From NCBI GenBank assembly GCA_045649505.1, contig JAZRQA010000061.1, positions 7,235 to 71,234 of the forward strand: 64,000 nt of DNA. Direction: 5' to 3'. Shown piece after piece: positions 24,558-61,466 of this stretch (the first letter of the stretch is position 1; the number at the start of each line of letters is the position of its first letter). This DNA is from Acutalibacteraceae bacterium (GTDB lineage Bacteria > Bacillota > Clostridia > Oscillospirales > Acutalibacteraceae). The notes under the pieces were generated by a model that saw only the letters and a list, made by a program, of their open reading frames with translations, was not told the DNA's origin and made no database searches. The position numbers and the translations under genes are program-made.

Positions 24558-24559
24558 CT

Positions 24560-27000: not shown

Positions 27001-27021
27001 TTTATTCAGGAGGAAAACAAA

Positions 27022-34527: not shown

Positions 34528-34796
34528 TTGTCTCACCTCCTGTGTAGTGATTATAATGAATATAGGTTGGTGAAAAAGCGCACTTGCGCTTTTTCACGGA
34601 CAAATTTTTAATTTGTCCGTGAAATTATAAAAATAATTTCACCTATTTCATTGCAATGATGTCGGCGTAAATAATCAAGGATTATTTACATAAAACCGCT
34701 ATGTGTAGCGGTTTTTCGAAAAACCTTTATTTGAAAGCTTTTCGACTACCGATTATCATTATAAAAACGTATATTGATTTTTCGGAGGAAAAAACT

Positions 34797-36080: not shown

Positions 36081-36105
36081 AAATAATTTTTAACGAGGTA
36101 ATATA

Positions 36106-37023
36106 ATGCCTATTAAAATACCGAACGACCTCCCTGCAGTACAAACGCTGTTGGACGAAAATATTTTTGCCATAACCGAAACAAGGGCAATTACTCAGGA
36201 TATTCGTCCCCTTAAAATTCTGCTTCTCAATCTTATGCCTAAGAAGATAGAAACCGAGACCCAGATTTGCAGAATTTTGGGTAACACCCCCTTACAGATA
36301 GAGTTAACCCTTATCCGCACAAGCACCCACGAGGGTAAAAACACCTCAAAGGAACATCTTCTTGCGTTTTATAAGACCTTCGAGGATGTAAAACACGAAA
36401 ACTTTGACGGTATGATAATCACGGGCGCGCCCGTTGAGCAGCTTGAATTTGAACAGGTCGATTACTGGGATGAGCTTTGCACTATTATGGATTGGAGCAC
36501 CACTCATGTGCACAGTACAATGCACATTTGTTGGGGTGCACAGGCAGGTCTTTACCACCATTTTGGAATAAAAAAGCATCCCCTTGACAAAAAACTTTTC
36601 GGGGTATTTGCGCACAAATGCGAACACCCGAAATCTATGCTCCTTCGTGGCTTTGACAGCGTTTTTTACGTGCCCCACTCCCGTTATACCGAGGTAAGGC
36701 GCGAGGATATTCTTTCGTGTAAGGATTTAAAAATACTTGTTTCCTCACCTGAAGCAGGTGTGCATATTGTTGCCCAGAACGGCGGAAGAAGATTTTTTGT
36801 TATGGGTCACGCGGAATATGACCCCCTCACCCTTGATGCAGAATATAAGCGTGATGCCGCCGCGGGACTTGACACCGCAATCCCCAAAAATTACTATCCC
36901 GACAACGACCCCGATAAATTCCCCATTGTAAACTGGCGCGCACACGGAAGTCTTATTTTTATAAATTGGCTCAACTATTTTGTGTACCAGTCTACCCCCT
37001 ATGACCTAAAGGAAATAAAATAA
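36106..37023 (+). CDS. metA: Homoserine O-acyltransferase (MetA family)
   Basis: 305 aa. Motifs include [23 protein letters not shown] and ICWGAQA. Confidence 0.9.
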
Positions 37024-37076: not shown

Positions 37077-37353
37077 AAATATAAAGGCAATGACGAAGAC
37101 GGTTTAGTTTTTCGGTTTTCAGAGAATCGGCGGTTGGTGCAAGCCGATAACCTACAAACTTTGTAACCCATCCCTTCCGAGCCGGAGGTAAAAAAGGCGT
37201 TTCGCTTAGTAGATATCTCCCGTGATTGCTGCGTAAAGGCATAGGAATTGTAAGATTCCGAGAGTGGCAGTTTTTACTGCAATTTGAGTGGTACCGCGGA
37301 TGTGAATTATCACACTCGTCTCAAAGAAATTGAGACGGGTGTTTTTTATTTTT
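37077..37353 (+). promoter_or_regulatory. T-box riboswitch leader 1 (specifier read as AUC, Ile)
   Basis: Stem I has a GA motif (AATGA..GA), an AGAGA bay and a GGTGCAA distal loop. T-box core is AATTTGAGTGGTACCGCGG (37281-37298). Terminator spans 37312-37340 with a T-run. ATC at 37170-37172 lies just 5' of the lower helix. Confidence 0.9.
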
Positions 37354-37378
37354 TAACCTGTCGAAAGGTGTGAGAAAA

Positions 37379-39646
37379 ATGTCAACAGTAGAAAATAAAA
37401 AATTATTAGAGGTGGCGGCGCGTATTCGCGAAATGCGCGAAATCTGCTCGCTTAGTACCGAAGAAATGGCCGAAAAGACCGAGGTCAGCGTAGCCGAATA
37501 CGAGGCTTATGAGGCAGGAAAACAGGATTTCCCCTTTACCTTTATTCATAAATGCGCCCTTGCCTTTAACCTTGGAATTTCCGACCTGCTTGAGGGCCAC
37601 AGCGCCAACCTTTCCTCTTATACCGTTACCCGCAAAGGGCAAGGACAGGAGACAGCCAAGGAGGAAGGAATAAGTATTCAGAACTTGGCTCCCCTTTTCA
37701 GAAAGAAAATTGCCGAGCCTTATTGGGTACGCTATGACTATGACGAAAGTCTTCAAAACAAGCCTATTCATCTGACCAAGCATTCAGGTCAGGAGTTTGA
37801 CTTTGTTATGAGCGGTCGACTTAAAATTCAAATCGGTGATAATATTGAATATTTAAGCGAGGGTGACAGCATTTATTATAACTCCTCCACCCCTCACGGT
37901 ATGATAGCCGTTGACGGCAAAGAGTGTCTTTTTGTTGCCGTTGTTCTTCCCGGTGAGGATGAAAGCGAGCCCGCCGCAAGAAATACCATTATGTCGATGC
38001 ACACCTCCACCAAAAGGCTTGTGAGCGATGAATTTATCACCACGGCGGAGAACGAAAAGGGTTATCTTGAAAAGATTGACTTTAAAAATGAAGACCGCTT
38101 TAACTTTGCCTTTGATGTGGTTGATGCCATTGCAAAGAAGGACCCCGAAAAGCTTGCTATGCTTCATCTTGATAAAAACAAGGTGGAACGCCGCTTTACC
38201 TTTAATGATATGAAGCGCGCCTCTAACCAGTGCGCCAACTACTTTAAATCCCTCGGTATCAAAAAGGGTGACAAGGTTATGCTTGTACTCAAGCGTCATT
38301 ATCAGTTCTGGTATGCAATTCTTGCTCTGCACAAGCTTGGCGCAATAGCTATTCCTGCAACAAATCAGCTTGTTGCTCACGATTTTGAGTACCGCTTTAA
38401 CAGCGCCGATGTTAGCGCCATTGTTTGTACTGCTGACGGCGATGTTGCAAATCAGGTAGATTTAGCCCAGAGCACAAGCGCGACCTTAAAGACCAAGATC
38501 CTTGTGGGTGGCGAAAAAGAGGGCTGGCATAATTTTGATGAGGAATATCCTCTGTATTCAGCCCACTACTATCGTGATGAAAATACCGCCTGTGGTGATG
38601 ACCTTATGCTGATGTTCTTTACATCAGGCACCACAGGCTATCCAAAAATTGCCGCGCACAGCTATAAATATGCTTTAGGGCATTACATAACTGCAAAATA
38701 CTGGCACGGCGTGAGTGAAGGCGGACTTCATTTTACAATCTCAGAAACAGGTTGGGGCAAAGCCCTTTGGGGCAAGCTTTACGGACAATGGCTGTGCGAG
38801 GGAGCGGTGTTTACCTATGACTTTGACCGCTTCGCCGCAAGTGATATTTTGCCTATGTTCGCAAAATATAATATAACCACATTCTGCGCGCCCCCAACAA
38901 TGCTTAGAATGATGATAAAAGAGGATATCTCAAGGTATGACCTTTCCTCCATAAAGCATATGACCACTGCAGGTGAGGCTTTAAACCCTGAGGTTTACCG
39001 TCAGTTCGAAAAGGCAACGGGGCTTCAGATAATGGAAGGCTTCGGTCAGACCGAGCTTACCCTTGTTATTGCAAACCTTATGGGCGGCTCTCACAAGCTT
39101 GGCTCAATGGGAAAACCTACTCCCCTTTATGATGTTGATATTCTTGATCCTGACGGTAATCCAGTTGAGGACGGTGAAACAGGCGAAATTGTTGTTAAGA
39201 CAAGTGATAAGGTGCCCTGTGGACTGTTCAGCGGATATTACAAAAATCAAGAAAAAACCGACGAGGTATGGCACGACGGCTATTACCACACAGGAGATAC
39301 CGCCTGGCGTGATGAGGACGGATTCATCTGGTATGTGGGCAGAGTTGATGATGTTATCAAATCTTCGGGTTACCGTATAGGACCCTTTGAGATTGAAAGC
39401 GTTATAATGGAATTGCCTTATGTCCTTGAATGCGGCGTTTGCGCGGCACCTGATGAGGTGCGTGGTCAGGTAGTTAAGGCAAGCATTGTTCTGGTTAAGG
39501 GCACGAAAGAGTCCGATGAACTTAAAAAAGAGATACAGGATTATGTTAAGAATCACACTGCGCCCTATAAGTATCCGCGTATTGTTGAGTTCAGGGAGTC
39601 TTTGCCTAAGACGATAAGCGGTAAAATTCAGCGAAACAAGCTTTAA
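37379..39646 (+). CDS. XRE-HTH + cupin + medium-chain (ACSM/MACS-like) AMP-forming acyl-CoA synthetase fusion
   Basis: HTH_3 at aa ~10-72. Cupin at aa ~80-190 (GQEFDFVMSG..GDSIYYNSSTPHGM). Ligase from nt ~38090 (FNFAFDVVD, FFTSGTTGYPK, YHTGD, GYRIGPFEIE, SGKIQRNKL). Confidence 0.85.
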   Translation: MSTVENKKLLEVAARIREMREICSLSTEEMAEKTEVSVAEYEAYEAGKQDFPFTFIHKCALAFNLGISDLLEGHSANLSSYTVTRKGQGQETAKEEGISIQNLAPLFRKKIAEPYWVRYDYDESLQNKPIHLTKHSGQEFDFVMSGRLKIQIGDNIEYLSEGDSIYYNSSTPHGMIAVDGKECLFVAVVLPGEDESEPAARNTIMSMHTSTKRLVSDEFITTAENEKGYLEKIDFKNEDRFNFAFDVVDAIAKKDPEKLAMLHLDKNKVERRFTFNDMKRASNQCANYFKSLGIKKGDKVMLVLKRHYQFWYAILALHKLGAIAIPATNQLVAHDFEYRFNSADVSAIVCTADGDVANQVDLAQSTSATLKTKILVGGEKEGWHNFDEEYPLYSAHYYRDENTACGDDLMLMFFTSGTTGYPKIAAHSYKYALGHYITAKYWHGVSEGGLHFTISETGWGKALWGKLYGQWLCEGAVFTYDFDRFAASDILPMFAKYNITTFCAPPTMLRMMIKEDISRYDLSSIKHMTTAGEALNPEVYRQFEKATGLQIMEGFGQTELTLVIANLMGGSHKLGSMGKPTPLYDVDILDPDGNPVEDGETGEIVVKTSDKVPCGLFSGYYKNQEKTDEVWHDGYYHTGDTAWRDEDGFIWYVGRVDDVIKSSGYRIGPFEIESVIMELPYVLECGVCAAPDEVRGQVVKASIVLVKGTKESDELKKEIQDYVKNHTAPYKYPRIVEFRESLPKTISGKIQRNKL

Positions 39647-39698: not shown

Positions 39699-39996
39699 AA
39701 AATTGATAAAGGCTTTGACGAAGAGGGCATAATTTACCCCCTTGCCTTACAGAGAGATGGCGTTTGGTGCAAGCCATTGGCAAGAAATTATGTTTGTAGC
39801 TTCCGAGTCGGGAGAAAGAAAGGGGCGGCTTGCTCTGAGTAGAATCTTCCCGTGATTGCTGCGTAAAGGCATAGGAATTGTCAGATTCCGAGAGGGGCAG
39901 TTTTAAACTGCAATTTGAGTGGTACCGCGGGTCAACTGAAACTTTTCAGCGCTCGTCTCAAAGTCATAACTTTGGGACGGGTGTTTTTTTCGTCCC
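39699..39996 (+). promoter_or_regulatory. T-box riboswitch leader 2 (specifier read as GUA, Val)
   Basis: Same architecture as leader 1. Has AGAGAG, GGTGCAA, core AATTTGAGTGGTACCGCGG (39912-39930) and a terminator at 39952-39990. GTA at 39796-39798 is followed by G and then the CTTC lower helix. Confidence 0.9.
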
Positions 39997-40014: not shown

Positions 40015-42306
40015 ATGGAACAAATTACAGGGCTTGATTTTAAAATCAAGGAAATGGCGTCCCGTATCAGGGAGCTTCGAGAGCTTGAGGGCTTAACCAC
40101 CGCCCAGATGGCTTTGAAAACCGATATTAGCGAAGGTGAATATATAGAGTGTGAGTCGGGCAAAAAGGATTTGAACTTTGCCTTTATTTATCGTTGTGCA
40201 ATGGCGTTGAGCGTTAATGTTACCGATATTATCGAAGGTCACTCTCCTACACTTAAATCCTATACCGTTACCCGCTTCGGCGCAGGTCAGAAGGTTTCAC
40301 AGGCTCACGGTATGACCTATTATAACCTTGCTTATGCTTTCCGCGACAGAATAGCCGAGCCTCTTTATGTTCGCAGTGTTTACGACGAGAATGCCGAAAA
40401 CACAAAGGATATTGAGCTTACCACCCACGCAGGTCAGGAGTGCGACCTGATTATCGAGGGTAATCTTATGGTTCAGATTGGTGAGCACAGGGAGATTTTG
40501 GGCCCAGGTGACAGCATCTATTTTGATTCTGACACACCTCACGGTATGATAGCCGTTGGCGGTAAAGACTGTATTTTTTATGCCATTGTTCTTAATCCCA
40601 CAGGTGAGCCTATACCCGAGCTTACCACAAGGCAGGCGGTGAGAGAAAATCACAACGCCAAAAGAGATACCAAGAACCGTATATATAAAAAGTATATTGA
40701 TGTAGTTGAGAATGAAAACGGAACGCCTACCTCTATCACCTTTAAGAATACCGAGAAGTTCAACTTTGCTTTTGACCTTGTTGATGCTTTAAGCGAGCGC
40801 GAGCCTGAAAAAATGGCAATGTTGCACATTTCCCGAGATGGTGATGAGCGCCGTTTTACCTTTAAGGATATGAAAAAAGCAAGTGCCCAATGCGCTAACT
40901 ACTTTAAATCCCTCGGCATTAAAAAGGGCGACAGAGTTATGCTTATTTTAAAGCGTCACTATCAATTTTGGTTTGCAATGCTGGGTCTTAATAAGCTTGG
41001 CGCAATAGCTATTCCCGCACCTAATCAGCTTTTGGACCATGACCTTGAATACCGATTTAATGCGGCAGGGATTGACACAGTTATCTGCACCGCTGACGGT
41101 GATGTTGCAAGACAGGTAGATATTGCCGCCGCTAAATGCGATACAATACGTAATAAACTTATTGTAAACGGAAGCAGAGAGGGCTGGCGCAGTTTTGACG
41201 ATGAGTACACCCTTTTCAGTTCCCATTTTGAGCGTAATGAGGACTCACCCTGCGGTGATGACCCGATGCTTATGTTCTTTACCTCGGGTACTACGGGATA
41301 TCCCAAGATTGCAACCCATAACCACAAATATCCGCTGGGACACTTCCACACCGCCAAATACTGGCACGACGTTGACCCTGACGGACTGCACTTTACCATC
41401 TCGGATACGGGCTGGGCTAAGGCAATGTGGGGCAAGCTTTACGGACAGTGGCTGTGCGAGGCGGCAACCTTTGTTTATGACTTTGACCGCTTTGATGCGG
41501 CAGAAATTCTGCCCATGTTTGCAAAGCATAAGATAACCACCTTCTGCGCGCCGCCCACAATGCTTCGTATGATGATAAAGCAGGATATTTCAAAATATGA
41601 TTTCTCCTCTGTTAAGCATATGACCACTGCAGGTGAGGCTTTAAATCCTGAGGTATACCGTCAGTTTGAAAAGGCAACGGGACTGCAGATTATTGAAGGC
41701 TTCGGTCAGACCGAAAGCACTATGATTATAGGTAATATGGTTGGTGCTTCCCATAAAATCGGTTCAATGGGCAAACCTGCCCCTATTTATAATGTTAAGA
41801 TTGTTGACCCCGAAGGTAATGAGGTTGCCGTAGGCGAAACTGGTGAAATTGTTGTTGATATTTCAAACGGCGCGCCCTGTGGACTCTTTACAGGCTACTA
41901 CCGTGACGAGGCCAAAACAAAAGAGGTTTGGCATGACGGCTTCTATCATACGGGAGATACCGCCTGGAAGGATGAGGACGGCTTCTTCTGGTATGTTGGC
42001 CGTGTAGATGACGTTATCAAGTCCTCAGGCTACCGCATTGGTCCCTTTGAAATTGAAAGCGTTATTATGGAATTACCTTATGTTCTTGAATGCGGCGTTT
42101 GCGCCGCACCCGATGAAGTGCGCGGTCAGGTAGTTAAGGCAAGCATTGTTCTTGTTGATGGCACCGAGGGTACTGATGAACTTAAAAAAGAGATACAAGA
42201 GTATGTTAAAAAGCATACTGCGCCCTACAAATATCCGCGAATCGTTGTATTTAAGGATTCTCTGCCCAAGACGGTAAGCGGAAAGATACAAAGGAACAAG
42301 CTTTAA
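40015..42306 (+). CDS. XRE-HTH + cupin + medium-chain AMP-forming acyl-CoA synthetase fusion (paralogue of 37379..39646)
   Basis: Same three-part architecture. HTH-cupin module spans nt 40015-40596 and the ligase starts at ~40753. The C-terminal ~90 aa are nearly identical to the upstream paralogue. Confidence 0.85.
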   Translation: MEQITGLDFKIKEMASRIRELRELEGLTTAQMALKTDISEGEYIECESGKKDLNFAFIYRCAMALSVNVTDIIEGHSPTLKSYTVTRFGAGQKVSQAHGMTYYNLAYAFRDRIAEPLYVRSVYDENAENTKDIELTTHAGQECDLIIEGNLMVQIGEHREILGPGDSIYFDSDTPHGMIAVGGKDCIFYAIVLNPTGEPIPELTTRQAVRENHNAKRDTKNRIYKKYIDVVENENGTPTSITFKNTEKFNFAFDLVDALSEREPEKMAMLHISRDGDERRFTFKDMKKASAQCANYFKSLGIKKGDRVMLILKRHYQFWFAMLGLNKLGAIAIPAPNQLLDHDLEYRFNAAGIDTVICTADGDVARQVDIAAAKCDTIRNKLIVNGSREGWRSFDDEYTLFSSHFERNEDSPCGDDPMLMFFTSGTTGYPKIATHNHKYPLGHFHTAKYWHDVDPDGLHFTISDTGWAKAMWGKLYGQWLCEAATFVYDFDRFDAAEILPMFAKHKITTFCAPPTMLRMMIKQDISKYDFSSVKHMTTAGEALNPEVYRQFEKATGLQIIEGFGQTESTMIIGNMVGASHKIGSMGKPAPIYNVKIVDPEGNEVAVGETGEIVVDISNGAPCGLFTGYYRDEAKTKEVWHDGFYHTGDTAWKDEDGFFWYVGRVDDVIKSSGYRIGPFEIESVIMELPYVLECGVCAAPDEVRGQVVKASIVLVDGTEGTDELKKEIQEYVKKHTAPYKYPRIVVFKDSLPKTVSGKIQRNKL

Positions 42307-42971
42307 TGAAGGAATTTAAACGTTTAACTTTACTTTGCGGGCATTACGGCAGCGGCAAAACAAATGTTGCGGTTAATGTTGCATTTGAGCTTAAAAAAGT
42401 GTATAATAATGTAGCCGTTGCGGATTTGGATATAGTTAACCCCTATTTTCGCGCAAAGGATTCCCGTAAGGATTTTGAGCACAAGGGCATTCGCCTTATC
42501 TGCTCGGAATATGCCAACACAAATGTTGACATTCCTGCCTTACCCGCGGATATCTACACCATTACGGTAGACAAAAGCATGTACACCGTACTTGATATCG
42601 GCGGCGATGACCGCGGCGCCTACGCCCTTGGAAGAATTGCTGATGATATTAAGGCGGAAGACAACTACGAGATGCTTATGGTAATAAACCGCTACCGTCC
42701 GCTTACCCCCGACGCGCAAAGCACTCTCGAGGTTATGCGGGAAATTGAGGCGGCGTGCAAAATCCCCTTTACGGGACTTGTTAATAATTCAAACCTCGGT
42801 GAGCTTACCGCGGCAAGCGATGTGCTTGAAAGCATACTCTATGCAAATGAGGTGTCAAGGCTTTCGGGGCTACCCGTGGTTATGACAACGGTAAATGAAA
42901 AACTGTATTGTGAGCTTGAGGACAGGGTGGAGAATTTATTTCCCCTTACTCTGCAATCCAAGTTGATATAA
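42306..42971 (+). CDS. P-loop NTPase of unknown function (SIMIBI/MinD-CooC-like)
   Basis: 221 aa. N-terminal GHYGSGKTN Walker A, hydrophobic strand plus DIGGDD as a Walker-B-like element. TAATG overlap with the ligase stop. Confidence 0.5.
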   Translation: MKEFKRLTLLCGHYGSGKTNVAVNVAFELKKVYNNVAVADLDIVNPYFRAKDSRKDFEHKGIRLICSEYANTNVDIPALPADIYTITVDKSMYTVLDIGGDDRGAYALGRIADDIKAEDNYEMLMVINRYRPLTPDAQSTLEVMREIEAACKIPFTGLVNNSNLGELTAASDVLESILYANEVSRLSGLPVVMTTVNEKLYCELEDRVENLFPLTLQSKLI

Positions 42972-42988
42972 TTTAAGGAGCGATGAAT

Positions 42989-43195
42989 ATGGCAAAGCTT
43001 ACATTTAAAACAGACCTTTGTAAGGGCTGCGGGCTGTGTGTTGATGCCTGCCCGAAAAATCTGCTGTGTCTGGCACCCGATAAGATAAATAAAAAGGGTC
43101 ACCACCCAGTGGAAATAACCGATCAGAATGCCTGTATTGGCTGCGCTTTTTGCGCTACTATGTGCCCTGATTGCATTATTAAGGTAGAAAGGTAG
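42989..43195 (+). CDS. 2x[4Fe-4S] ferredoxin (delta subunit of 2-oxoacid:ferredoxin oxidoreductase)
   Basis: CKGCGLCVDACP and CIGCAFCATMCP motifs. GGAG lies 9 nt upstream of ATG 42989. Confidence 0.85.
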   Translation: MAKLTFKTDLCKGCGLCVDACPKNLLCLAPDKINKKGHHPVEITDQNACIGCAFCATMCPDCIIKVER

Positions 43196-43206
43196 GGAAA
43201 AAGGAT

Positions 43207-44274
43207 ATGTCTGATAAGGTACTTATGAAGGGCAATGAAGCCATTGCGGAAGCCGCTATTATTGCAGGCTGCCGACACTATTTCGGCTATCCCATTACTC
43301 CCCAAACCGAAATCGCCGCATATATGGCAAAAAAAATGCCTAAAATAGGCGGAACATTTTTACAGGCAGAAAGTGAAATTGCCGCAATAAATATGGTCTA
43401 CGGCGTTTCCTCTACGGGTAAACGCGTTATGACATCATCCTCAAGTCCGGGTATTGCGCTTAAGAGCGAGGGACTTTCCTATCTCGCAGGCGCAGACCTT
43501 CCCGCACTTGTTGTAAATGTTCAGCGCGGCGGCCCCGGTCTTGGCGGTATTCAGCCCAGTCAGTCTGATTATTTTCAGGCTACCCGTGCAGGCGGTCACG
43601 GTGATTTCCGTATGATTGTTCTTGCCCCCGCATCCGTTCAGGAGATGGCAGAGCTTACCGTTAAGGGCTTTGAGCTTGCGGATACATACAGAATGACTTC
43701 TATGATACTTGCTGACGGTACAATGGGTCAGATGATGGAGCCCGTTTCCCTTGACCTTGAGGTTGCTCCCGCTCCCGAAAAGCCTTGGGCTACTACAGGC
43801 ACCAAGGGGATACGCCCCCACAATATTGTAAATTCACTTTTCCTTGCTCCCGAAGAGCTTGAGAAGTTTAATTTTGACCGTTTTGAGCGTTATAAATACA
43901 TTGAAGAAAACGAAGCAATGTATGAGGAATATATGATGGAGGATGCCGAAATTTGCATAGCTGCCTTCGGTATTGCCGCCCGTGTTTCTAAAAACGCTAT
44001 AAACGAGGCAAGAAAGCAGGGTATTAAGGTTGGTATGATTAGACCTATTACCCTTTGGCCCTTCCCTAACGCCCCATTTGAAAAAGCTGCAGATAAGGTA
44101 AATTCGATTATATGCGTTGAGCTTTCAATGGGTCAGATGATCGAGGATGTACGCCTTGCCACACACTGCAAGGTTGACGTAACCCTTTGCAACCGTGTAG
44201 GCGGTATGATACCCTCTCCCGAACAGGTGCTTGAGGCTATAAAAGTGGCGGCTAAAAACGGAGGTGCAAAATAA
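43207..44274 (+). CDS. 2-oxoacid:ferredoxin oxidoreductase alpha subunit (VOR/KOR type)
   Basis: 355 aa. Motifs MKGNEAIAEAAI.AGCR.YFGYPITPQ and QAESEIAAINM are typical of the four-subunit OFOR alpha subunit. Confidence 0.85.
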   Translation: MSDKVLMKGNEAIAEAAIIAGCRHYFGYPITPQTEIAAYMAKKMPKIGGTFLQAESEIAAINMVYGVSSTGKRVMTSSSSPGIALKSEGLSYLAGADLPALVVNVQRGGPGLGGIQPSQSDYFQATRAGGHGDFRMIVLAPASVQEMAELTVKGFELADTYRMTSMILADGTMGQMMEPVSLDLEVAPAPEKPWATTGTKGIRPHNIVNSLFLAPEELEKFNFDRFERYKYIEENEAMYEEYMMEDAEICIAAFGIAARVSKNAINEARKQGIKVGMIRPITLWPFPNAPFEKAADKVNSIICVELSMGQMIEDVRLATHCKVDVTLCNRVGGMIPSPEQVLEAIKVAAKNGGAK

Positions 44275-45029
44275 TGGTAGTTTTTGATAAACCTAAGGCT
44301 TTAACAGATGTGCCTATGCACTACTGCCCCGGTTGCACACACGGTATTGTTCACCGCCTTGTTGCCGAGGTTATTGATGAGCTCCAAATTGAGGGCAAGA
44401 CCATTGGTATTGCGCCTGTTGGTTGCTCTGTTATGGCTTATAACTATTTTAACTGTGATATGATTGAAGCAGCTCACGGACGCGCTCCTGCAGTTGCTAC
44501 GGGCGTTAAGCGTTCCGACCCTGACAACCACATCGTGTTTACATATCAGGGTGACGGTGACCTTGCTTCAATCGGTATGGCTGAAACCGTGCATAGCGCG
44601 GCAAGAAACGAGAACATCACCGTTATATTCATTAACAACGCAATTTACGGTATGACAGGCGGTCAGATGGCACCTACCTCTCTGCCCGGTCAGGTTACTC
44701 AAACCTCACCCTATGGCCGTGATGTAAAGCAATGCGGTTACCCCGTTAAGGTTTGCGAAATGCTTAGCGAGCTTGAGGGTCCCGAATATCTTGAGCGCGT
44801 TACCGTAAACAATGTTAAGAATATTAAAAACGCCAAGAAGGCTATAAAGAAGGCCTTCCAGAATCAGATAGACGGCAAGGGCTTCTCCCTTGTAGAGGTA
44901 GTTTCGACCTGTCCCACCAACTGGGGTATGACTCCGCAGAAGGCACTCAAATGGATAGATGACAATATGCTGCCCTACTATCCTTTGGGCGTTTATAAAG
45001 ACCGTTCTGCCCAAAAGGAGGAGAAATAA
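44274..45029 (+). CDS. 2-oxoacid:ferredoxin oxidoreductase beta subunit (TPP-binding)
   Basis: YCPGCTHG cluster/TPP region and GDGD..NNAIYGMTGGQ motif. ATG overlaps the alpha stop. Confidence 0.85.
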   Translation: MVVFDKPKALTDVPMHYCPGCTHGIVHRLVAEVIDELQIEGKTIGIAPVGCSVMAYNYFNCDMIEAAHGRAPAVATGVKRSDPDNHIVFTYQGDGDLASIGMAETVHSAARNENITVIFINNAIYGMTGGQMAPTSLPGQVTQTSPYGRDVKQCGYPVKVCEMLSELEGPEYLERVTVNNVKNIKNAKKAIKKAFQNQIDGKGFSLVEVVSTCPTNWGMTPQKALKWIDDNMLPYYPLGVYKDRSAQKEEK

Positions 45030-45568
45030 TGAGTACCAAAAATTTTCTGTTTTCCGGTTTCGGTGGTCAGGGTATTCTCTTTGCAGGTAAGTTCCTTGCC
45101 TACAAGGGTCTGTATGAAGGTAAAAATGTAAGCTGGCTGCCCTCCTACGGCCCCGAAATGCGCGGCGGTACCGCAAGCTGCTCGGTTATTGTAAGCGAAG
45201 AAGCAGTTGGCTCGCCGATAGTATCAAACCCCGATATTCTGGTTGCAATGAATCTGCCCAGCCTTGATAAATTTGAAAATGATATTGTATCAGGCGGTCT
45301 TGTGTTTGCCGATTCCGCTCTTATTGAGCGCAAGGTAAACCGTGACGATATTACCGCTTATTACATTCCTGCAACCCGTCTTGCAGGTGAAAACGGTATG
45401 CCCACGCTTGCTAATATGATTATTATGGGCAAGATTTTAAAGGTGCTCGGCGAGTATGATGAGGAAAGCCTTAAAGCTACAATGGCAAAGGTTATCCCCC
45501 CGAAGCACGCAGATATGCTTGAAGTAAACCTTAAGGCACTTAAAATCGGTGCCAATTATGAGGAGTAA
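45029..45568 (+). CDS. 2-oxoacid:ferredoxin oxidoreductase gamma subunit
   Basis: 179 aa. GFGGQGILFAGK motif. ATG overlaps the beta stop. Confidence 0.85.
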   Translation: MSTKNFLFSGFGGQGILFAGKFLAYKGLYEGKNVSWLPSYGPEMRGGTASCSVIVSEEAVGSPIVSNPDILVAMNLPSLDKFENDIVSGGLVFADSALIERKVNRDDITAYYIPATRLAGENGMPTLANMIIMGKILKVLGEYDEESLKATMAKVIPPKHADMLEVNLKALKIGANYEE

Positions 45569-45573
45569 TTAAA

Positions 45574-46635
45574 ATGGAAATTTCTATTACAAAAACAACT
45601 GCGCCCAAGGTTAAGCCCGAGGCTTCAACCCTTGGTTTTGGTAAATTCTTTACCGACCATATGTTTATGATGGACTTCTCCCGCGAGGAAGGTTGGCACG
45701 ATGCAAGAATTATCCCCTTTGCCAACATCTCTTTGCACCCTGCCTCCACCGTACTACACTACGGCTCCGAAATATTTGAGGGCTTAAAAGCCTACCGTCG
45801 CGCAGACGGCAAGGTTCAATTGTTCAGACCTATGGAAAACATCCGCAGAATGAACAACTCTGCTGACAGACTTTGTCTGCCTCAGATTCCTGAGGATATG
45901 GCCCTTGAGGTATTAACTAAATTTGTAGAGCTTGAGCAGGATTGGACGCCCAGCGCAGAGGGTACCTCCCTCTATCTTCGTCCCTTTATGTTCGGCAATG
46001 ACGAATCCCTCGGTGTTCACGCCGTTCATAACGCAACCTTTGTTATAATAGCTTCCCCTGTTGGCAGCTATTATAAAGAGGGTATAAACCCTGTCAAGAT
46101 TATGATTGAGGATGAGGATGTCCGTGCGGTACGCGGCGGTACAGGTTATGCCAAATGCGGCGGTAACTATGCCGCATCCAACCGTGCAGGTGAGCGTGCC
46201 GAGCAAAAGGGTTATTCTCAGGTGCTCTGGCTTGACGGTGTTGAGCGTAAATATATTGAGGAGGTTGGCGCCATGAACGTTATGTTCAAAATCGGCGGCG
46301 AGGTTATCACTCCTATGCTTTCAGGCTCCATTCTCCCCGGTATTACAAGAAAGTCCTGTATTGAGGTTCTTAAAAAGGCGGGCTACACCGTAAGCGAGCG
46401 ACTGCTCAGCATTGATGAGCTTGCCGCCGCTATGGAAAACGGTACCCTTGAGGAGGCATGGGGTTGCGGTACTGCCGCAGTTGTTTCCCCCATTGGCGAG
46501 CTTTGCTACAAGGATAAGAAATACACCGTTAATAACGGTGAGATAGGCAAGGTTACCCAGATGCTTTACGATACCTTGACAGGTATTCAGTGGGGTAAAA
46601 TTGAGGACACATTTAATTGGACCTACGAGATATAA
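45574..46635 (+). CDS. ilvE: Branched-chain amino acid aminotransferase (class IV PLP, long form)
   Basis: 353 aa. Motifs include FTDHMF, HYGSEIFEGLKAY, KCGGNYAAS and ILPGITR. Confidence 0.9.
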   Translation: MEISITKTTAPKVKPEASTLGFGKFFTDHMFMMDFSREEGWHDARIIPFANISLHPASTVLHYGSEIFEGLKAYRRADGKVQLFRPMENIRRMNNSADRLCLPQIPEDMALEVLTKFVELEQDWTPSAEGTSLYLRPFMFGNDESLGVHAVHNATFVIIASPVGSYYKEGINPVKIMIEDEDVRAVRGGTGYAKCGGNYAASNRAGERAEQKGYSQVLWLDGVERKYIEEVGAMNVMFKIGGEVITPMLSGSILPGITRKSCIEVLKKAGYTVSERLLSIDELAAAMENGTLEEAWGCGTAAVVSPIGELCYKDKKYTVNNGEIGKVTQMLYDTLTGIQWGKIEDTFNWTYEI

Positions 46636-46639: not shown

Positions 46640-46675
46640 AAAACCCTTTTGTTTGCGCAAAAGGGTTTTTCTTTT
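46640..46675 (+). terminator. Intrinsic terminator ending the ligase-VOR-ilvE operon
   Basis: AAAACCCTTTT-N8-AAAAGGGTTTT followed by a T-rich run. Confidence 0.8.
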
Positions 46676-46684: not shown

Positions 46685-46713
46685 TTGACAAATAATTTCA
46701 CTTATGATATAAT
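46685..46713 (+). promoter_or_regulatory. Sigma-A type promoter of T-box leader 3
   Basis: TTGACA, 17-nt spacer, TG-n-TATAAT. Confidence 0.65.
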
Positions 46714-46719: not shown

Positions 46720-46992
46720 AAATTTTTGAAATGCTATGAAGGAATTATTTTTGATTCTCCCCTTCCTTTCAGAGAGCTGCTGTTTGGTGCAAGGCGGTAG
46801 GAAGCGAACCGAAAAGTCTCATTCCGGAGCAGAGCGGCTGAAAATTAAGTTAAGCTGCTACGGTTTGCCCCGTTATCTTGGCAGAAGGCTTGTTAGAGCC
46901 TTAGTGAGTGACCGTGTTATACGGTAATCAGGGTGGTACCGCGAATTATTATTCGTCCCTGAGGTTGGATGTCCCGGCCTCAGGGACTTTTT
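46720..46992 (+). promoter_or_regulatory. T-box riboswitch leader 3 (specifier read as CUC, Leu)
   Basis: GA motif (TATGA..GGA), AGAGAG, GGTGCAA, core AATCAGGGTGGTACCGCG (46926-46943). Terminator is GTCCCTGAGG-N13-CCTCAGGGAC plus T5 (46955-46992). CTC at 46818-46820 is followed by A and then the TTCC lower helix. Confidence 0.9.
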
Positions 46993-47031
46993 ATGTGGTA
47001 AAAAAATTAGCGCGAAAGGTCGAAGAAAGAA

Positions 47032-48411
47032 ATGCAAAAAATCAAAATTATTGACAACACTCTTGCAAGAGAAAACGGCACTTTTTCTTTTAAGGAAAAA
47101 ATTGAGATTGCCCGTCAGCTTGAAAAATTAAATGTCGACACCATTGAACTTAGCGAAATTGAGAATGAGCACACCGATATTCTTCTTGTGCGCACCCTTT
47201 CTTCATTTGTTAAAAACAGTACCGTTTCGGTTGGAGCAGGCTCCGATGCAAAGAGTATTGAAAACGCCGCAGCTGCTCTTAGCGGCACTAATAATCCTTG
47301 TATCCGAATTGAGCTTCCCCTCTCCACTGTCGGTATGGAATATATCAGTCGCAAAAAGGCGCCTAAGATGCTCGAATGGATTAGCGAGTGCGTTACCGCC
47401 GCTAAGAAGAAGTGCAGCGAGGTTGAATTTTGCGCGGTAGACGCTACACGCGCCGATAAGGATTTTTTAATTACAGCCATTGACACTGCCGCCAAGGCGG
47501 GTGCAACAAGAATTTGTATTTGTGACAGCACAGGAAATATGATGCCTGATGATTTTGCCGCCTTTGCCAGCGAGGTTAAGGCAACTACAAATCTACCTGT
47601 AGGTGTAAAATGTAACAACAAAAACGGTCTTGCCGTTGCTCAGGCAATTCTCAGCGCAAGGCAGGGTATTGAATATGTTAAGGCGCAGGTAGGCTGTGAG
47701 GGTGTTGATCTTGAAATCTTTTCCGATATGGTTAAAAACTGCGGAAATGACTACGGCTTTTACTGCGATATAAAAACCACCGAGCTTCACAGGATAATTA
47801 ATCAGATTAAGTGGATTAGTGAAAATGCAAAAAGTGATAATTCGGCAATGCGCGTAGGCACAATTGAAGAATGGGGTATTCATCTTGATGCAAAGGATGA
47901 TATTGCCGCCGTTACCGCCGCCTCTAAAAAGCTTGGTTATGACCTTTCGGAGGAGGACTGTGCCAAGGTTTACGAAGAATTTTGCCGTGTTGCCGATAAA
48001 AAAGATGTAGGCGCTAAAGAGCTTGAAGCCATTATAGCAAGCGTTGCTTTGCAGGTGCCCGCCACCTATAAGCTTATAAACTATGTTGTAAACAGCGGTA
48101 ATATTATTTCTACAAGCGCACAGCTTACCTTAGAAAAGGACGGCAAGGAAATTCAGGGTGTACAGATGGGTGACGGTCCTATTGATGCCGCATTTAAAGC
48201 TATTGAGGGCATTATTGGCTGTCATTTTGAGCTTGATGATTTCCAAATTCAGTCGGTTACCGAGGGTAAGCAGGCACTTGGCAGTGCCATTGTTAAACTG
48301 CGTTCAAGCGGAAAGCTTTACTGCGGCAACGGTATCTCTACTGATATTATAGGAGCAAGTATTCGCGCATATATAAGCGCCGTTAATAAGATTGTTTACG
48401 AGGAGGCGTAA
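47032..48411 (+). CDS. 2-isopropylmalate/citramalate synthase homologue with degenerate active site and intact LeuA_dimer regulatory domain
   Basis: Aligns with LeuA over its full length. However, TLRDGEQ is replaced by TLARENG, HxHxxD by KCNNKNG, and GERAGN by GCEGVD. The C-terminal domain is conserved (GDGPIDAAFKAIE..SVTEG.QALG..V.L...G....G.G.STDII.AS..AY..A.NKI). Confidence 0.7.
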   Translation: MQKIKIIDNTLARENGTFSFKEKIEIARQLEKLNVDTIELSEIENEHTDILLVRTLSSFVKNSTVSVGAGSDAKSIENAAAALSGTNNPCIRIELPLSTVGMEYISRKKAPKMLEWISECVTAAKKKCSEVEFCAVDATRADKDFLITAIDTAAKAGATRICICDSTGNMMPDDFAAFASEVKATTNLPVGVKCNNKNGLAVAQAILSARQGIEYVKAQVGCEGVDLEIFSDMVKNCGNDYGFYCDIKTTELHRIINQIKWISENAKSDNSAMRVGTIEEWGIHLDAKDDIAAVTAASKKLGYDLSEEDCAKVYEEFCRVADKKDVGAKELEAIIASVALQVPATYKLINYVVNSGNIISTSAQLTLEKDGKEIQGVQMGDGPIDAAFKAIEGIIGCHFELDDFQIQSVTEGKQALGSAIVKLRSSGKLYCGNGISTDIIGASIRAYISAVNKIVYEEA

Positions 48412-48413: not shown

Positions 48414-50921
48414 ATGAAATTTTCCTTTTCAACAAAGGGTTGGCACGAAAGCACATTTGATGATTTCTGCCGTGTAGCACAGGAGCTGAAATTTGAAGGC
48501 ATTGAGCTGCACAACATTTATAACCGCCTCTTTACCGATAGGGACGGTGCTTTCCACGACTATACCGCCGCGGCTACTGTCCGCCGTCTTTATGAACGCA
48601 AGCTGACTCTTCCCTGTATTGACACCGTATGTAATATTGCCCGCGACGATATTGATTCCTGTTTAAAAGAAATCGGTGCCTGTGCTCAAATTGCAAAAAA
48701 TCTTCACATCCCCTGCATTCGTTTAAAGGCAACCGCTAATATCGGCGACCAAGATGCTACGCAACACCTTTGCGCAATTATAGAGAAGGCTCTACCCGAG
48801 GCAACCGATTTAGGTATTACCCTTTTACTTGAAACATCGGGTCTTTTTGCCGATACCAAGGCACTGCGTGTTATACTTGACAGCTTTGCAAGTGATAATT
48901 TAGCCGCTCTGTGGAATTTATCTGCCGCGTATTTTGAATTTGGAGAGGACGCCGACACCGTTATTAAGAACCTTGGTGCCTATGTACGCCATGTTCATTT
49001 CAGCGATGCGATAAAATCAGATGATGAGATAACCTACTGTCTTGCAGGCGAGGGCACGCTTCCCATAAAGGAAATGATGCTTGCTCTACGCTCGGTGAAC
49101 TATGATGGCTTTATCTCCCTTGTTTGGGACCCTACATGGTGCAGTGAACTCGACGATATGGAGATAATTTTCTCACAGTTTGTTAACTTTATGAAACAGT
49201 TTGCCGATACCTCCAGGAATGAGTCCACCCTTTATTACAACAGGGCGCATACGGGTAAGTATGTATGGAAAAAGGACCTGCTGATTGACGCCACCTTTTC
49301 ACAGGTGCTTGACCGTATGGTTGAGGAATTCCCCGACCAATATTGCTTTAAATACACAACCCTTGACTATACCCGTACCTATAGCGAGTTCAGAGATGAC
49401 GTTGACACCTTCGCCCGCGCTCTTATCAGTATGGGTGTTAAGGCGGGTAGCAAGGTTGCAGTTTGGGCGAGCAACGTACCGCAGTGGTATATTGCTTTTT
49501 GGGCAACCACAAAAATAGGCGCGATACTGGTTACCGTAAACACCGCCTATAAAATCCACGAGGCTGAATATCTGTTAAAGCAGTCTGATACACACACTCT
49601 GATTATGACGCAGGGTGCTAAGGACACCGATTACGGTAAAATAATAGCACGACTGTGCCCCGAACTTGAAAATTTAAAGGCGGGACAGTCACTGCACAGC
49701 AAAAAACTGCCCTTCCTGCGCAATGTTATAACAGTTGGATTTAGGCAAAGAGGCTGTATGACCTGGAGCGAAGCTGTTGCCCGTTCTTCGCAGGTGCCTG
49801 CCTCCGAGGTCTACCGTATGGCGGCCACCGTGGATAAGGACGATGTATGCAATATGCAGTACACATCGGGAACCACGGGATTCCCAAAGGGTGTTATGCT
49901 CACCCATTATAATGTTGTTAATAACGGCAAATATATCGGCGACCATATGGACCTTTCCACAGCCGACCGTATGATGATACAGGTGCCAATGTTCCACTGC
50001 TTCGGTATGGTACTTTCTATGACCGCAAGTATGACCCACGGTACAACAATGTATCCCCTGCCCTATTTCTCACCAGGGCCCGCGCTTTCCTGTGTGCACA
50101 ATGAGCATATCACCGCCTTTAACGGTGTTCCCACTATGTTTATTGCAATGATGCAGCACGCCGATTTTGCAAAAACCGATTTTTCGCATATGCGTGTTGG
50201 TATTATGGCAGGCTCAAACTGCCCTGCAGACCTTATGAAAAAGGCCACGCAGGTTATGAATATGACCGAAATCGTATCGGTTTACGGTCAGACCGAGGCT
50301 AGTCCGGGTTGCACTATGAGTAGCTACTACGATTCTCTTGAGGTGCGTACCGAAACTGTCGGAAGCGCTTTTGCCAATGTTGAGTGTAAGATAGTCGACC
50401 CCGAAACGGGCGAGGACTGCGATGTTGGTGTAACGGGTGAATTTGTCGCCAGGGGCTACAATATCATGAAGGGATATTACAAAATGCCCACCGCTACTGC
50501 CGAGGCTATTGATAAGGACGGTTGGCTCCATACAGGTGACCTTGCCTGTAAAACGGCTGAGGGAAACTATCTTATTACAGGCAGACTTAAGGATATGATA
50601 ATCCGCGGCGGCGAAAATATTTATCCTAAGGAGATAGAGGAGTTTATCTACACCAATAATAAGGTAAGCGACGTTCAGGTTATAGGCGTTCCCGACGAGC
50701 AGTACGGCGAGGAGATAATGGCGTGTATTATCCTTAAAAAGGGCGAAAGTATGACCGAGCAAGAGATGAGGGCATATATCTCCGCCAATATGGCAAGGCA
50801 CAAGGTGCCACGATATATTCAATTTATGGATAGTTTTCCGATGAATGCCGCAGGAAAGATTTTAAAATACAAAATGCGCGAGGATGCCGCACAGCGTTTA
50901 GGATTGAAGGCAGATAAATAA
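48414..50921 (+). CDS. Fusion of a xylose-isomerase-like TIM barrel (AP_endonuc_2) with a FadD/ACSF2-like AMP-forming acyl-CoA ligase
   Basis: TIM barrel at aa 1-~263 (FEGIELH, LLLETSG, YVRHVHFSD). Ligase at aa ~290-835 (QYTSGTTGFPKGVMLTH, YGQTE, WLHTGD, GRLKDMIIRGGENIYP, AGKILK). Confidence 0.8.
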   Translation: MKFSFSTKGWHESTFDDFCRVAQELKFEGIELHNIYNRLFTDRDGAFHDYTAAATVRRLYERKLTLPCIDTVCNIARDDIDSCLKEIGACAQIAKNLHIPCIRLKATANIGDQDATQHLCAIIEKALPEATDLGITLLLETSGLFADTKALRVILDSFASDNLAALWNLSAAYFEFGEDADTVIKNLGAYVRHVHFSDAIKSDDEITYCLAGEGTLPIKEMMLALRSVNYDGFISLVWDPTWCSELDDMEIIFSQFVNFMKQFADTSRNESTLYYNRAHTGKYVWKKDLLIDATFSQVLDRMVEEFPDQYCFKYTTLDYTRTYSEFRDDVDTFARALISMGVKAGSKVAVWASNVPQWYIAFWATTKIGAILVTVNTAYKIHEAEYLLKQSDTHTLIMTQGAKDTDYGKIIARLCPELENLKAGQSLHSKKLPFLRNVITVGFRQRGCMTWSEAVARSSQVPASEVYRMAATVDKDDVCNMQYTSGTTGFPKGVMLTHYNVVNNGKYIGDHMDLSTADRMMIQVPMFHCFGMVLSMTASMTHGTTMYPLPYFSPGPALSCVHNEHITAFNGVPTMFIAMMQHADFAKTDFSHMRVGIMAGSNCPADLMKKATQVMNMTEIVSVYGQTEASPGCTMSSYYDSLEVRTETVGSAFANVECKIVDPETGEDCDVGVTGEFVARGYNIMKGYYKMPTATAEAIDKDGWLHTGDLACKTAEGNYLITGRLKDMIIRGGENIYPKEIEEFIYTNNKVSDVQVIGVPDEQYGEEIMACIILKKGESMTEQEMRAYISANMARHKVPRYIQFMDSFPMNAAGKILKYKMREDAAQRLGLKADK

Positions 50922-51733
50922 TGGTACAGGACAAATATTTTGTTATAGATGCTCACTGCCATATTTATCCCCAAAAGATAGTGGAAAAGGCAGTAGCAGG
51001 TACCGATAACTTTTATGGTGTTAAGTCGGAATGCTACGGTACCTATACCGATTTAATAAACTGCGGCGCCGCGTGCGGGATTGACCTCTTTATAGTTCAG
51101 TCGGTTGCCACAACGCCGAAGCAGGTGCAAAGCATAAACGACTTCATTGCCGAGAGTGTTGCACAACATCCCCACAGGCTCACCGGTCTTGGTACCCTTC
51201 ACCCCGATAGCGAGGATATTGCGGGGGATGCGAAGCATATTCTTTCCCTTGGTCTTCACGGGGTAAAGATTCACCCAGACATTCAGCGTTTTGCTTTGGA
51301 TGATGAAAAATGTCTTGAAATGTATAGAGTTTGTGAGGAGTACGCTCTGCCTATGCTTATTCACACAGGGGATAACCGCTATGATTTTTCTAATCCCAAC
51401 CGTCTTATCCCCGTACTTCGCGCCTTCCCCCGTTTAACGGTGGTGGGCGCCCACTTTGGCGGATTTTCGGTGTGGCAGGAAGCGGCAGAAAAGCTTTACA
51501 AGATAGATAACTTTTTTGTTGATTGCTCCTCTACCTTTCCCTTTATCGGTGTGGATGCCGCAAGGCCTCTTGTAAGCAAATTTACCCCTGATAAAATTCT
51601 TTTCGGCACCGATTATCCTATGTGGGCACCCGATAAGGAGATTAAACGCTTTTTATCCCTTAATTTAAGTGAAAAAGACAACCAAAAAATATTCAGTGAA
51701 AATGCTAAAAAGGTGTATAGGCTCGATTTTTAA
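50921..51733 (+). CDS. Amidohydrolase_2-family TIM-barrel metal-dependent hydrolase/decarboxylase
   Basis: 270 aa. Motifs include IDAHCHIYP, GVKIHPD, HTG and LFGTDYPMW. ATG overlaps the upstream stop. Confidence 0.75.
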   Translation: MVQDKYFVIDAHCHIYPQKIVEKAVAGTDNFYGVKSECYGTYTDLINCGAACGIDLFIVQSVATTPKQVQSINDFIAESVAQHPHRLTGLGTLHPDSEDIAGDAKHILSLGLHGVKIHPDIQRFALDDEKCLEMYRVCEEYALPMLIHTGDNRYDFSNPNRLIPVLRAFPRLTVVGAHFGGFSVWQEAAEKLYKIDNFFVDCSSTFPFIGVDAARPLVSKFTPDKILFGTDYPMWAPDKEIKRFLSLNLSEKDNQKIFSENAKKVYRLDF

Positions 51734-60674: not shown

Positions 60675-61466
60675 ATGCTGATTGATTTTCACACACACGC
60701 TTTTCCCGATAAAATAGCCGCTATGGCGATAGATAAACTTTCCTTTGTTTCAGGCGGGCTTAAACCCCATACCGACGGTACCCTTGACAGCCTTAAAGAG
60801 TCTATGAAAAAGGGAGAGGTTGATATTTCGGTAGTGATGAGCATTGCCACCAATGCGCATCAGCAAAAAAATGTAAACGATTTTGCCGCACGGATAAATA
60901 TGGAAGAAAACATCTTTGCGTTTGGGTCGGTTTTCCCTGATGCCGAGGATGCGCTTTATGAGCTTGAACGAATTAAGGCTTTGGGGCTTAAAGGCGTTAA
61001 GCTTCACCCCGATTATCAGGGCTTTATGGCCGATGATGAGAAGATGATACCCATTTATAAAAAAATCTCAAAGCTTGGTCTTATAACCCTTTTTCACGCA
61101 GGGTTAGATTACGGCTTTGCGCCGCCCTACGGCGCCACACCCGAACGGCTTTTAAAGGCACTGTCTTTTTTCGACACTCCCGTCATTGCCGCGCACTGGG
61201 GCGGTGTAGGTTGCGGAGAAAAGGTAATTGAACTGCTTTGCGGTAGGGATATTTACTTTGATACCTCCTTTGGATACTCAACGATGCCCAAATATTTTGC
61301 GCAAAAAATCATTGAAAAGCATGGGTGTGAAAAGATGCTTTTCGGCACCGACACACCTTGGCACACCGCGCAAATGGAAATGCGCTTACTTGACAGCCTT
61401 AAATTGACTGATACCGAAATGGCTGACATTACCCACAAAAATGCGCAAAAGCTTTTAGGAATATAA
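60675..61466 (+). CDS. Amidohydrolase_2-family TIM-barrel hydrolase (paralogue of 50921..51733)
   Basis: 263 aa. Motifs include IDFHTHAFP, GVKLHPD, FHAG and LFGTDTPW. Confidence 0.75.
   Translation: MLIDFHTHAFPDKIAAMAIDKLSFVSGGLKPHTDGTLDSLKESMKKGEVDISVVMSIATNAHQQKNVNDFAARINMEENIFAFGSVFPDAEDALYELERIKALGLKGVKLHPDYQGFMADDEKMIPIYKKISKLGLITLFHAGLDYGFAPPYGATPERLLKALSFFDTPVIAAHWGGVGCGEKVIELLCGRDIYFDTSFGYSTMPKYFAQKIIEKHGCEKMLFGTDTPWHTAQMEMRLLDSLKLTDTEMADITHKNAQKLLGI

Follow-up and report, generated by a model that had tools for sequence, protein, structure and literature searches.

Why should a gene that encodes a homologue of 2-isopropylmalate synthase (LeuA), apparently stripped of its catalytic residues, be expressed from a leucine-specific T-box? 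The question is raised by a stretch of 64,000 nucleotides from an Acutalibacteraceae bacterium (GenBank assembly GCA_045649505.1, contig JAZRQA010000061.1, positions 7,235 to 71,234 of the forward strand), referred to here as the window. An original prediction, made from the letters of the window, had described the 459-residue product of this gene as a pseudoenzyme, probably kept as a leucine-sensing or scaffolding subunit, and had found its placement behind such a leader unexpected. We call the protein pLeuA ("pseudo-LeuA"). It is encoded directly upstream of an acyl-coenzyme A (acyl-CoA) ligase fusion, and the overall explanation considered here, to which we give about an even chance, is that pLeuA is a regulatory or scaffold subunit of that ligase in a leucine salvage arm.

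Loss of the catalytic residues

The open reading frame at 47032..48411 on the forward strand encodes the predicted 459-residue LeuA homologue, including, letter for letter, the sequence strings on which the prediction was based. The protein comprises a degenerate DRE-TIM barrel (residues ~1-265), a shortened linker, and an intact LeuA_dimer regulatory domain (~341-459). Pfam assigns HMGL-like to residues 15-220 (E 4e-30) and LeuA_dimer (PF08502) to residues 327-454 (E 2e-31), the latter over profile positions 3-130 of 131, so that the C-terminal domain is retained as predicted. PF22617, which is found in true LeuAs, is absent from the pLeuA family, and pLeuA is ~45-60 residues shorter than true LeuA. 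The NCBIfam models for LeuA, CimA, and homocitrate synthase all match far under their cut-offs, the best LeuA equivalog score being 257 bits (NF002086, cut-off 532), with TIGR00973 at 229 bits against 599. The AlphaFold2 (AF2) model of pLeuA (mean predicted local distance difference test score, pLDDT, 87) has the LeuA fold, with LeuA and MAM synthase structures as its top Foldseek matches; it matches the catalytic domain of Listeria LeuA (3ewb) with a target-length-normalised TM-score of 0.91 and a root-mean-square deviation of 1.8 Å, and also full-length LeuA of Mycobacterium tuberculosis (1sr9 and 3fig).

Within this fold, the hallmark residues are missing. A HMMER alignment sets TLAREN---G of pLeuA against TLRDGEQtpG of 3ewb, and KCNNKNG against HCHDDLG. 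A MAFFT alignment of pLeuA with Escherichia coli LeuA (from NC_000913) and 110 cluster representatives shows that RDGEQ, E-GFP, the Glu of "CEDA", HxH, GERAGN, and SGIHQDG are gone in every family member; the loss of RD, E, HxH, GERAGN, and SGIHQDG extends to all ~110 cluster representatives and 120 close homologues. The predicted loss of TLRDGEQ and HxHxxD is thereby borne out in both alignments and across the family. For GERAGN the loss holds as well, whereas its neat replacement by GCEGVD does not, the region being deleted or diverged. Among the metal ligands of LeuA, the Asp of RD is replaced by R and the His-x-His pair by K-x-N, again family-wide; where the catalytic Arg (R80 of M. tuberculosis LeuA) would stand, pLeuA has A and most relatives have C, the catalytic Glu has become V, and the His-bearing SGIHQDG segment of subdomain I is deleted. 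The Glu of "CEDA" is presumably the counterpart of E218 in M. tuberculosis LeuA. In that enzyme, a single substitution at R80 or E218 abolishes activity (PMC10464499).

The prediction had left room for metal ligands at shifted positions. Alignment finds the ligands absent and no shifted substitutes: residues 1-270 hold two His, of which H47 is unconserved and H253 lies outside the barrel, and a search of alternative His and Asp positions led us to reject the idea. With all three metal ligands lost family-wide, and with them the catalytic Arg, Glu, and His, pLeuA, although LeuA-shaped, cannot, as judged from its residues, carry out a Claisen condensation of the LeuA/CimA DRE-TIM type, and its predicted non-catalytic status with respect to this chemistry is supported at the level of sequence. 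In three further LeuA homologues (P0260, P0261, and P0265; 500-516 residues), the motifs are partly degenerate, DTTLCDGEQ, RAYNDLG, and GKRAGC being examples, and these proteins may represent stages in the evolution of the pLeuA family from true LeuA.

A widespread family under inverted constraint

A protein search with pLeuA returned thousands of matches, of which the best 120 are 64-90% identical, ~458 residues long, and termed "hypothetical protein" where named. An exhaustive search of 50%-identity representatives added ~110 full-length clusters of 455-480 residues, down to 32% identity, and true LeuAs (500-516 residues) rank only below these. With one genome scanned per species, pLeuA relatives occur in at least 583 species of GTDB, mostly Acutalibacteraceae, Oscillospiraceae, and metagenome-assembled genomes (MAGs) labelled "Ruminococcus sp.", from ruminant and human guts. 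Public annotation calls the family either "hypothetical" or, wrongly, "2-isopropylmalate synthase", and our literature search found no description of the family or of LeuA pseudoenzymes.

That the gene is a decaying pseudogene or an annotation artefact, as the disappearance of every catalytic motif might suggest, has a negligible chance of being correct and is effectively excluded, since 88 of 88 orthologues are intact, with no internal stops, the median ratio of nonsynonymous to synonymous substitution rates (dN/dS) is 0.066, the family occurs in at least 583 species, and T-box leader and gene order are conserved. The same 88 orthologues give a dN/dS of 0.076 for the barrel, 0.054 for the linker, and 0.033 for the regulatory domain, ratios that are rough because dS is near saturation, though far below 1. 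The regulatory domain is accordingly the most constrained part of the protein.

The distribution of constraint is the reverse of that in true LeuA, having moved from the barrel to the regulatory domain. Mean pairwise identity in the pLeuA family is 32% for the barrel and 58% for the regulatory domain, as against 48% and 36%, respectively, among three true LeuAs. The former active-site positions (the beta1 and beta7 loops and the GERAGN region) vary between clusters. In the regulatory domain, the motifs GDGPIDAAF, TEGREAMG, and GISTDIIGASIRAY are near-invariant, and identity to true LeuAs (37%) equals that of true LeuAs among themselves (36%) within a percentage point. The Gly that matches G462 of E. 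coli LeuA is conserved; we take the substitution G462D to make that enzyme feedback-resistant to leucine, and use it as a lead only. When the PDB was searched by sequence with the regulatory domain, the only match, a marginal one, was the regulatory domain of Leptospira CimA.

The leucine T-box and the obligate ligase partner

The leader in front of pLeuA is a Leu-specific T-box, as had been predicted: it scores above the gathering threshold of RF00230, ends in an intrinsic terminator that overlaps the 3′ strand of the antiterminator region, and carries a Leu specifier that is conserved or synonymously exchanged in relatives, both CTC and CTG being Leu codons: of 74 leaders, nearly all have CTC and two have CTG, and loci with CTG are L069, L082, and L085. 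The coordinates of this and the other features are collected in Table 1.

The gene that follows encodes a fusion of a xylose-isomerase-like TIM barrel (residues ~1-280) and an AMP-forming acyl-CoA synthetase (~290-835), with Pfam matches to AP_endonuc_2, AMP-binding, and AMP-binding_C and PRK12583 as the best NCBIfam model (651 bits). The ligase retains the adenylation motifs SGTTGFPKG, TGD, GRLKDMIIRGGENIYP, and the C-terminal GK. It is by far the most conserved component of the operon, with a cross-species identity of 78-89% for the ligase domain, compared with 57-70% for pLeuA, ~60-65% for the TIM domain, and ~50-60% for the amidohydrolase encoded third. The view that a T-box in front of a dead enzyme is unexpected therefore has to be revised, as what the T-box chiefly controls is an acyl-CoA ligase, intact and very conserved, and as the operon belongs to a cluster that also holds VOR, IlvE, and ligases under Ile and Val T-boxes (see below).

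The predicted coupling of pLeuA to the fusion is upheld by the local sequence and by comparison of loci. The fusion starts 2 nt past the pLeuA stop codon, and the final codons of pLeuA contain its Shine-Dalgarno sequence, GAGGAGG; farther on, the ATG of the amidohydrolase overlaps the stop codon of the fusion (TAATG). The fusion lies directly 3′ of pLeuA in all ~80 GTDB loci with enough sequence, and divergent pLeuA members, down to ~30-47% identity, keep the same pairing. As an independent check, 80 metagenome loci were fetched by the TIM domain alone; pLeuA is directly upstream on the same strand in all of the 68 that have room upstream. The pairing of the two genes is obligate, and pLeuA combines the marks of a pseudoenzyme subunit, namely catalytic loss under purifying selection and a stable association with the ligase gene. 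What is new about this pseudoenzyme, which derives from LeuA, is the partner with which it shares an operon.

A probable route from branched-chain fatty acids to branched-chain amino acids

Upstream of the Leu operon lie two further acyl-CoA ligase genes, both with a T-box leader of their own, followed by genes for a 2-oxoisovalerate:ferredoxin oxidoreductase (VOR) and the branched-chain aminotransferase IlvE (Table 1). The Ile and Val leaders both score just under the gathering threshold and were found by a permissive Rfam scan, having been missed at the standard one; the permissive scan of the 64-kb window found nothing beyond the three T-boxes. Their specificities are likewise conserved, with ATC in 6 of 6 Ile leader orthologues and, for Val, GTA in 23 of 25 and GTC in 2 of 25, both Val codons. 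The two ligases are paralogous and share an unusual architecture, an XRE-type helix-turn-helix (HTH) and a cupin domain in front of a full AMP-forming synthetase. Their best NCBIfam model is MbcS, whose cut-off of 850 bits neither reaches (445 and 442 bits). With 536 bits, the alpha subunit of VOR exceeds the cut-off of the NCBIfam VorB model (399 bits).

Table 1. Features of the three-ligase cluster, in window coordinates
Feature	Position	Strand	Remarks
T-box leader, Ile	37081..37326	+	RF00230 90.3 bits, E 2e-19; specifier AUC at 37170..37172
HTH + cupin + MbcS-like acyl-CoA synthetase	37370..39646	+	Proposed 2-methylbutyrate-CoA ligase
T-box leader, Val	39706..39963	+	RF00230 83.1 bits, E 2e-17; specifier GUA at 39796..39798
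Second HTH + cupin + MbcS-like acyl-CoA synthetase	40015..42306	+	Proposed isobutyrate-CoA ligase
CbiA/ParA-like P-loop protein	42306..42971	+	Weak Pfam CbiA/ParA; no NCBIfam match
VOR, four subunits	42983..45568	+	Pfam POR_N/PFOR_II, TPP_enzyme_C, POR
VOR delta (ferredoxin-like)	42983..43195	+	
VOR alpha	43207..44274	+	
VOR beta	44274..45029	+	
VOR gamma	45029..45568	+	
IlvE branched-chain aminotransferase	45574..46635	+	NF009897, 489 bits (cut-off 307)
Terminator-like hairpin after IlvE	46640..46669		Just upstream of the Leu-operon promoter
Sigma-70-type promoter, Leu operon	46685..46713	+	TTGACA-17-TATAAT with TG extension; 12/12 consensus
T-box leader, Leu	46727..46963	+	RF00230 123.5 bits (gathering 93)
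Leu T-box specifier CUC	46818..46820	+	
T-box intrinsic terminator	46955..46993	+	14-bp stem + T-run; hairpin at 46955..46987
pLeuA	47032..48411	+	459 residues; homologue of LeuA
TIM-barrel::acyl-CoA-ligase fusion	48414..50921	+	Proposed isovalerate-CoA ligase
Amidohydrolase	50921..51733	+	Amidohydro_2 PF04909, E 5e-35; metal-dependent hydrolase/decarboxylase family

Acyl-CoA ligases, VOR, and IlvE are thus encoded together behind T-box leaders of the starvation type, and the association recurs outside the window. The VOR and IlvE block adjoins pLeuA in about half of the GTDB loci; in several metagenome loci pLeuA begins ~30 nt after IlvE or VOR gamma, forming a single operon, and VOR and IlvE share the operon with pLeuA in L089, L096, L110, L112, L113, L138-140, and others. 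In L089, a Leu (CUC) T-box is followed by pLeuA, ligase, IlvE, an intervening gene, ferredoxin, and VOR. In a divergent relative (L085), an Ile (AUC) T-box lies directly 3′ of the TIM::ligase gene, at 4448..4696, and presumably leads into an Ile-arm ligase past the end of the contig.

Because the cluster unites three ligases, three branched-chain amino acid T-boxes (Ile, Val, and Leu), VOR, and IlvE, the Leu operon is best read as the leucine/isovalerate arm of a route from branched-chain fatty acids to amino acids, rather than as a remnant of the isopropylmalate pathway. In this route, the ligase fusion would activate isovalerate to isovaleryl-CoA, the ferredoxin-dependent VOR would reductively carboxylate isovaleryl-CoA to 2-oxoisocaproate, and IlvE would transaminate the latter to leucine; the two MbcS-like ligases, under their Ile and Val T-boxes, would do likewise for 2-methylbutyrate and isobutyrate. 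MbcS of Staphylococcus aureus activates 2-methylbutyrate and isobutyrate, and isovalerate poorly (PMC10026030). Since the upstream pair is MbcS-like and the ligase of the Leu operon belongs to another, PRK12583-like subfamily, isovalerate would be left for this third enzyme. Carboxylation of isovalerate to leucine is given as a known rumen route in PMC7356843, which cites Allison 1962 and 1966.

The direction of the pathway is probably biosynthetic and not fermentative, because the leaders are inducible by starvation and AMP-forming ligases are effectively irreversible. A catabolic reading of VOR and IlvE, as parts of amino-acid fermentation, was judged unlikely on the same grounds, T-boxes being induced on starvation and ligases of this type driving acyl-CoA formation. 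Our literature search found no description of T-box-controlled ligases for branched-chain fatty acids, and likewise none of this gene set, its control, or its pLeuA partner.

The proposed role of pLeuA and its alternatives

In the canonical pathway, LeuA catalyses the committed, leucine-inhibited step. In the proposed route, the activation of isovalerate would be the committed, ATP-consuming step toward leucine, because VOR and IlvE would serve all three amino acids. Since pLeuA has shed catalysis, has tightened its effector domain, and appears to be synthesised stoichiometrically with the ligase, we propose that it is the leucine-sensing or organising subunit of that enzyme. It would be made only when tRNA-Leu is uncharged, by way of the Leu T-box, and in fixed proportion with the fusion, by way of translational coupling; it would then bind the fusion and confer on it fast feedback inhibition by free leucine, in the manner of HisZ. 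A fuller version of this proposal is more tentative and, in our estimate, falls clearly short of an even chance: the dead LeuA would be the leucine-sensing allosteric subunit of an unrelated, ATP-consuming isovalerate-CoA ligase, an independently evolved equivalent of HisZ, and the cluster would be the long-sought gene set for isovalerate carboxylation in the rumen, in which VOR and IlvE are joined by three ligases that differ in substrate and that each have a sensor module and a cognate T-box. The HTH and cupin modules of the upstream ligases might be sensor or regulator domains, in parallel with the role proposed for pLeuA.

Several points weigh against this interpretation. Leucine binding by pLeuA and its contact with the ligase are steps that we infer from the comparisons above, and isovalerate is assigned to the ligase only from the specifier of the T-box and by elimination. 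The barrel, moreover, is still under strong purifying selection (dN/dS ~0.08), and it keeps the ancestral active-face residues D8, T10, S98, D137, R140, and D165, for which reasons it may still bind a ligand or be otherwise active. The fused TIM barrel and the amidohydrolase are left without a role by the salvage model. Finally, in L090 (592..7291), a MAG contig labelled Victivallales on which no T-box was detected, pLeuA and the TIM::ligase gene directly follow ilvB-ilvN-ilvC, the usual place of leuA, an arrangement that could mean instead that the isopropylmalate route has been replaced.

The state of the barrel is the starting point for a different reading, in which a neofunctionalised pLeuA barrel binds a pathway metabolite (isovaleryl-CoA, 2-oxoisocaproate, or CoA) and either channels it from the ligase to VOR or performs a new, metal-independent step. 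The low dN/dS of the barrel would fit, as would the persistence across the family of P96 along with the residues just listed, all on the C-terminal face, and DRE-TIM relatives such as DmpG, which is among the structural neighbours, form channelling complexes with partner enzymes. We nevertheless consider this unlikely: the lining of the former active site differs from cluster to cluster, which is not expected of a conserved pocket, subdomain I with its catalytic His is deleted, and no part of pLeuA is less conserved than the barrel.

Obligate adjacency and translational coupling would also fit a pure scaffold, in which pLeuA dimerises through LeuA_dimer, described by Pfam also as a dimerisation module, and organises the TIM::ligase, and perhaps the amidohydrolase, leucine not being an effector at all. 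What makes this distinctly unlikely in our view is the character of the regulatory domain. Its near-invariant motifs are those shared with feedback-regulated LeuAs, including the G462 position with its presumed desensitising role, and its similarity to true LeuAs, as high as theirs to one another, points to a retained ancestral function and not just to a new interface.

The genomic setting of L090 and the lack of a role for the TIM and Amidohydro_2 domains in a simple salvage model lend something to a further idea, namely that pLeuA and the TIM::ligase, with or without the amidohydrolase, form a new route from 2-oxoisovalerate to 2-oxoisocaproate that replaces LeuABCD, the partner domains providing catalysis. 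This is improbable, however, as linkage to VOR, IlvE, and MbcS-like ligases is far more frequent, the amidohydrolase is dispensable in many loci, the canonical metal ligands of the TIM domain are mostly lost, and no plausible chemistry ties an AMP-forming ligase to the one-carbon elongation of a keto acid. In 1.37 Mb of flanking DNA from ~90 loci, true leuA or leuB was not found, a result confined to these flanks.

Partner domains and neighbouring genes

For the TIM domain, a sequence search yielded only MJ1311 (E 1e-4), and its AF2 model (pLDDT 91) resembles generic xylose-isomerase-like barrels (AsbF and sugar epimerases) with TM-scores of ~0.7-0.78; no specific function could be assigned from these matches. 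The barrel (48414..49250) may also be partly degenerate, judging by its alignment. Of 76 sequences, 44 have N at the canonical metal position 168, as does the window, 19 have D, 10 have H, and 3 have Q; at position 237, another such position, 62 have V or I (V in the window) and 14 have E, while E31, H33, D70, E140, H193, D198, and E213 are invariant or nearly so.

The amidohydrolase keeps HxH and other conserved motifs and looks catalytically intact. It usually follows the fusion, is absent in many loci, and lies upstream of the T-box in L089. Its best relative in the PDB is an uncharacterised Bordetella protein, followed by decarboxylases of the ACMSD/LigW type, and these relatives allowed no specific function to be assigned. 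A second Amidohydro_2 gene lies at 60675..61466 (E 4.5e-18), 9 kb downstream of the one in the operon.

The CbiA/ParA-like protein sits between the Val-arm ligase and VOR delta, a position kept in relatives, and may help to mature VOR or to deliver Fe-S clusters to it. The stretch at 34701..37023, which immediately precedes the cluster, contains genes for a pyridoxal-phosphate enzyme of Cys/Met metabolism and a homoserine O-acyltransferase (methionine synthesis); even the permissive threshold revealed neither a riboswitch nor a T-box there. Elsewhere in the window, a 1156-residue open reading frame with no Pfam match is followed by a cohesin-domain protein (7866..12864), which suggests a scaffold of the cellulosome or amylosome type, fitting a lineage like Ruminococcus bromii, and a spore former is indicated by the SpoIIIA operon (22982..27576) together with SpoIID.

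Significance

For many Firmicutes that degrade fibre and starch in the gut and rumen, branched-chain fatty acids act as growth factors, and they are for this reason fed to ruminants; the carboxylation of these acids to amino acids has been on record since the 1960s. The locus described here offers a concrete gene set with which this old physiological pathway becomes genetically testable, the specifier codons of the T-boxes in effect tagging which ligase serves which amino acid. pLeuA itself would be a clean new case of a pseudoenzyme that keeps only its allosteric domain, and could serve as a leucine sensor module. If the proposal is correct, it also shows how control by feedback can be transferred between the entry points of pathways, here from LeuA to an acyl-CoA ligase. 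For metabolic models, the annotation of pLeuA as "2-isopropylmalate synthase" would wrongly predict a functional isopropylmalate pathway.

Comparison with known systems

The closest relatives of pLeuA by descent are LeuA and CimA, with which it shares a collinear TIM barrel, linker, and beta-beta-beta-alpha regulatory domain, as well as the regulatory motifs, and like LeuA it is tied to leucine supply and a Leu T-box. Unlike LeuA, it invariably has an acyl-CoA ligase fusion as its gene partner, and not leuBCD. MAM synthase is also derived from LeuA, and one of its structures (6e1j) is the top structural match to the pLeuA model. The two have taken opposite courses, MAM synthase having kept catalysis and lost the regulatory domain.

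In terms of regulation, the nearest parallel is HisZ, a dead paralogue of the histidyl-tRNA synthetase HisRS that mediates end-product inhibition of short-form ATP phosphoribosyltransferase (PMC9734150). In HisZ, a paralogue of an enzyme from the same amino-acid system has lost catalysis and regulates a different enzyme, as is proposed for pLeuA. The fold and partner of HisZ are unrelated to those of pLeuA, for which effector binding and complex formation are predicted.

Among the ligases, MbcS of S. aureus provides the closest NCBIfam model for both upstream enzymes. These add HTH and cupin domains and score below its cut-off, whereas the ligase of the Leu operon is PRK12583-like and carries an N-terminal TIM barrel. 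As for the pathway as a whole, the reductive carboxylation pathway of Allison and co-workers for isovalerate, isobutyrate, and 2-methylbutyrate in rumen bacteria, as represented in the source cited above, is found in the same habitat and has the same chemistry that is predicted here, from acid to acyl-CoA, 2-oxo acid, and amino acid, and the window encodes VOR and IlvE beside the ligases. As presented there, work of the Allison type is physiological, whereas the cluster in the window is known here from its genes.

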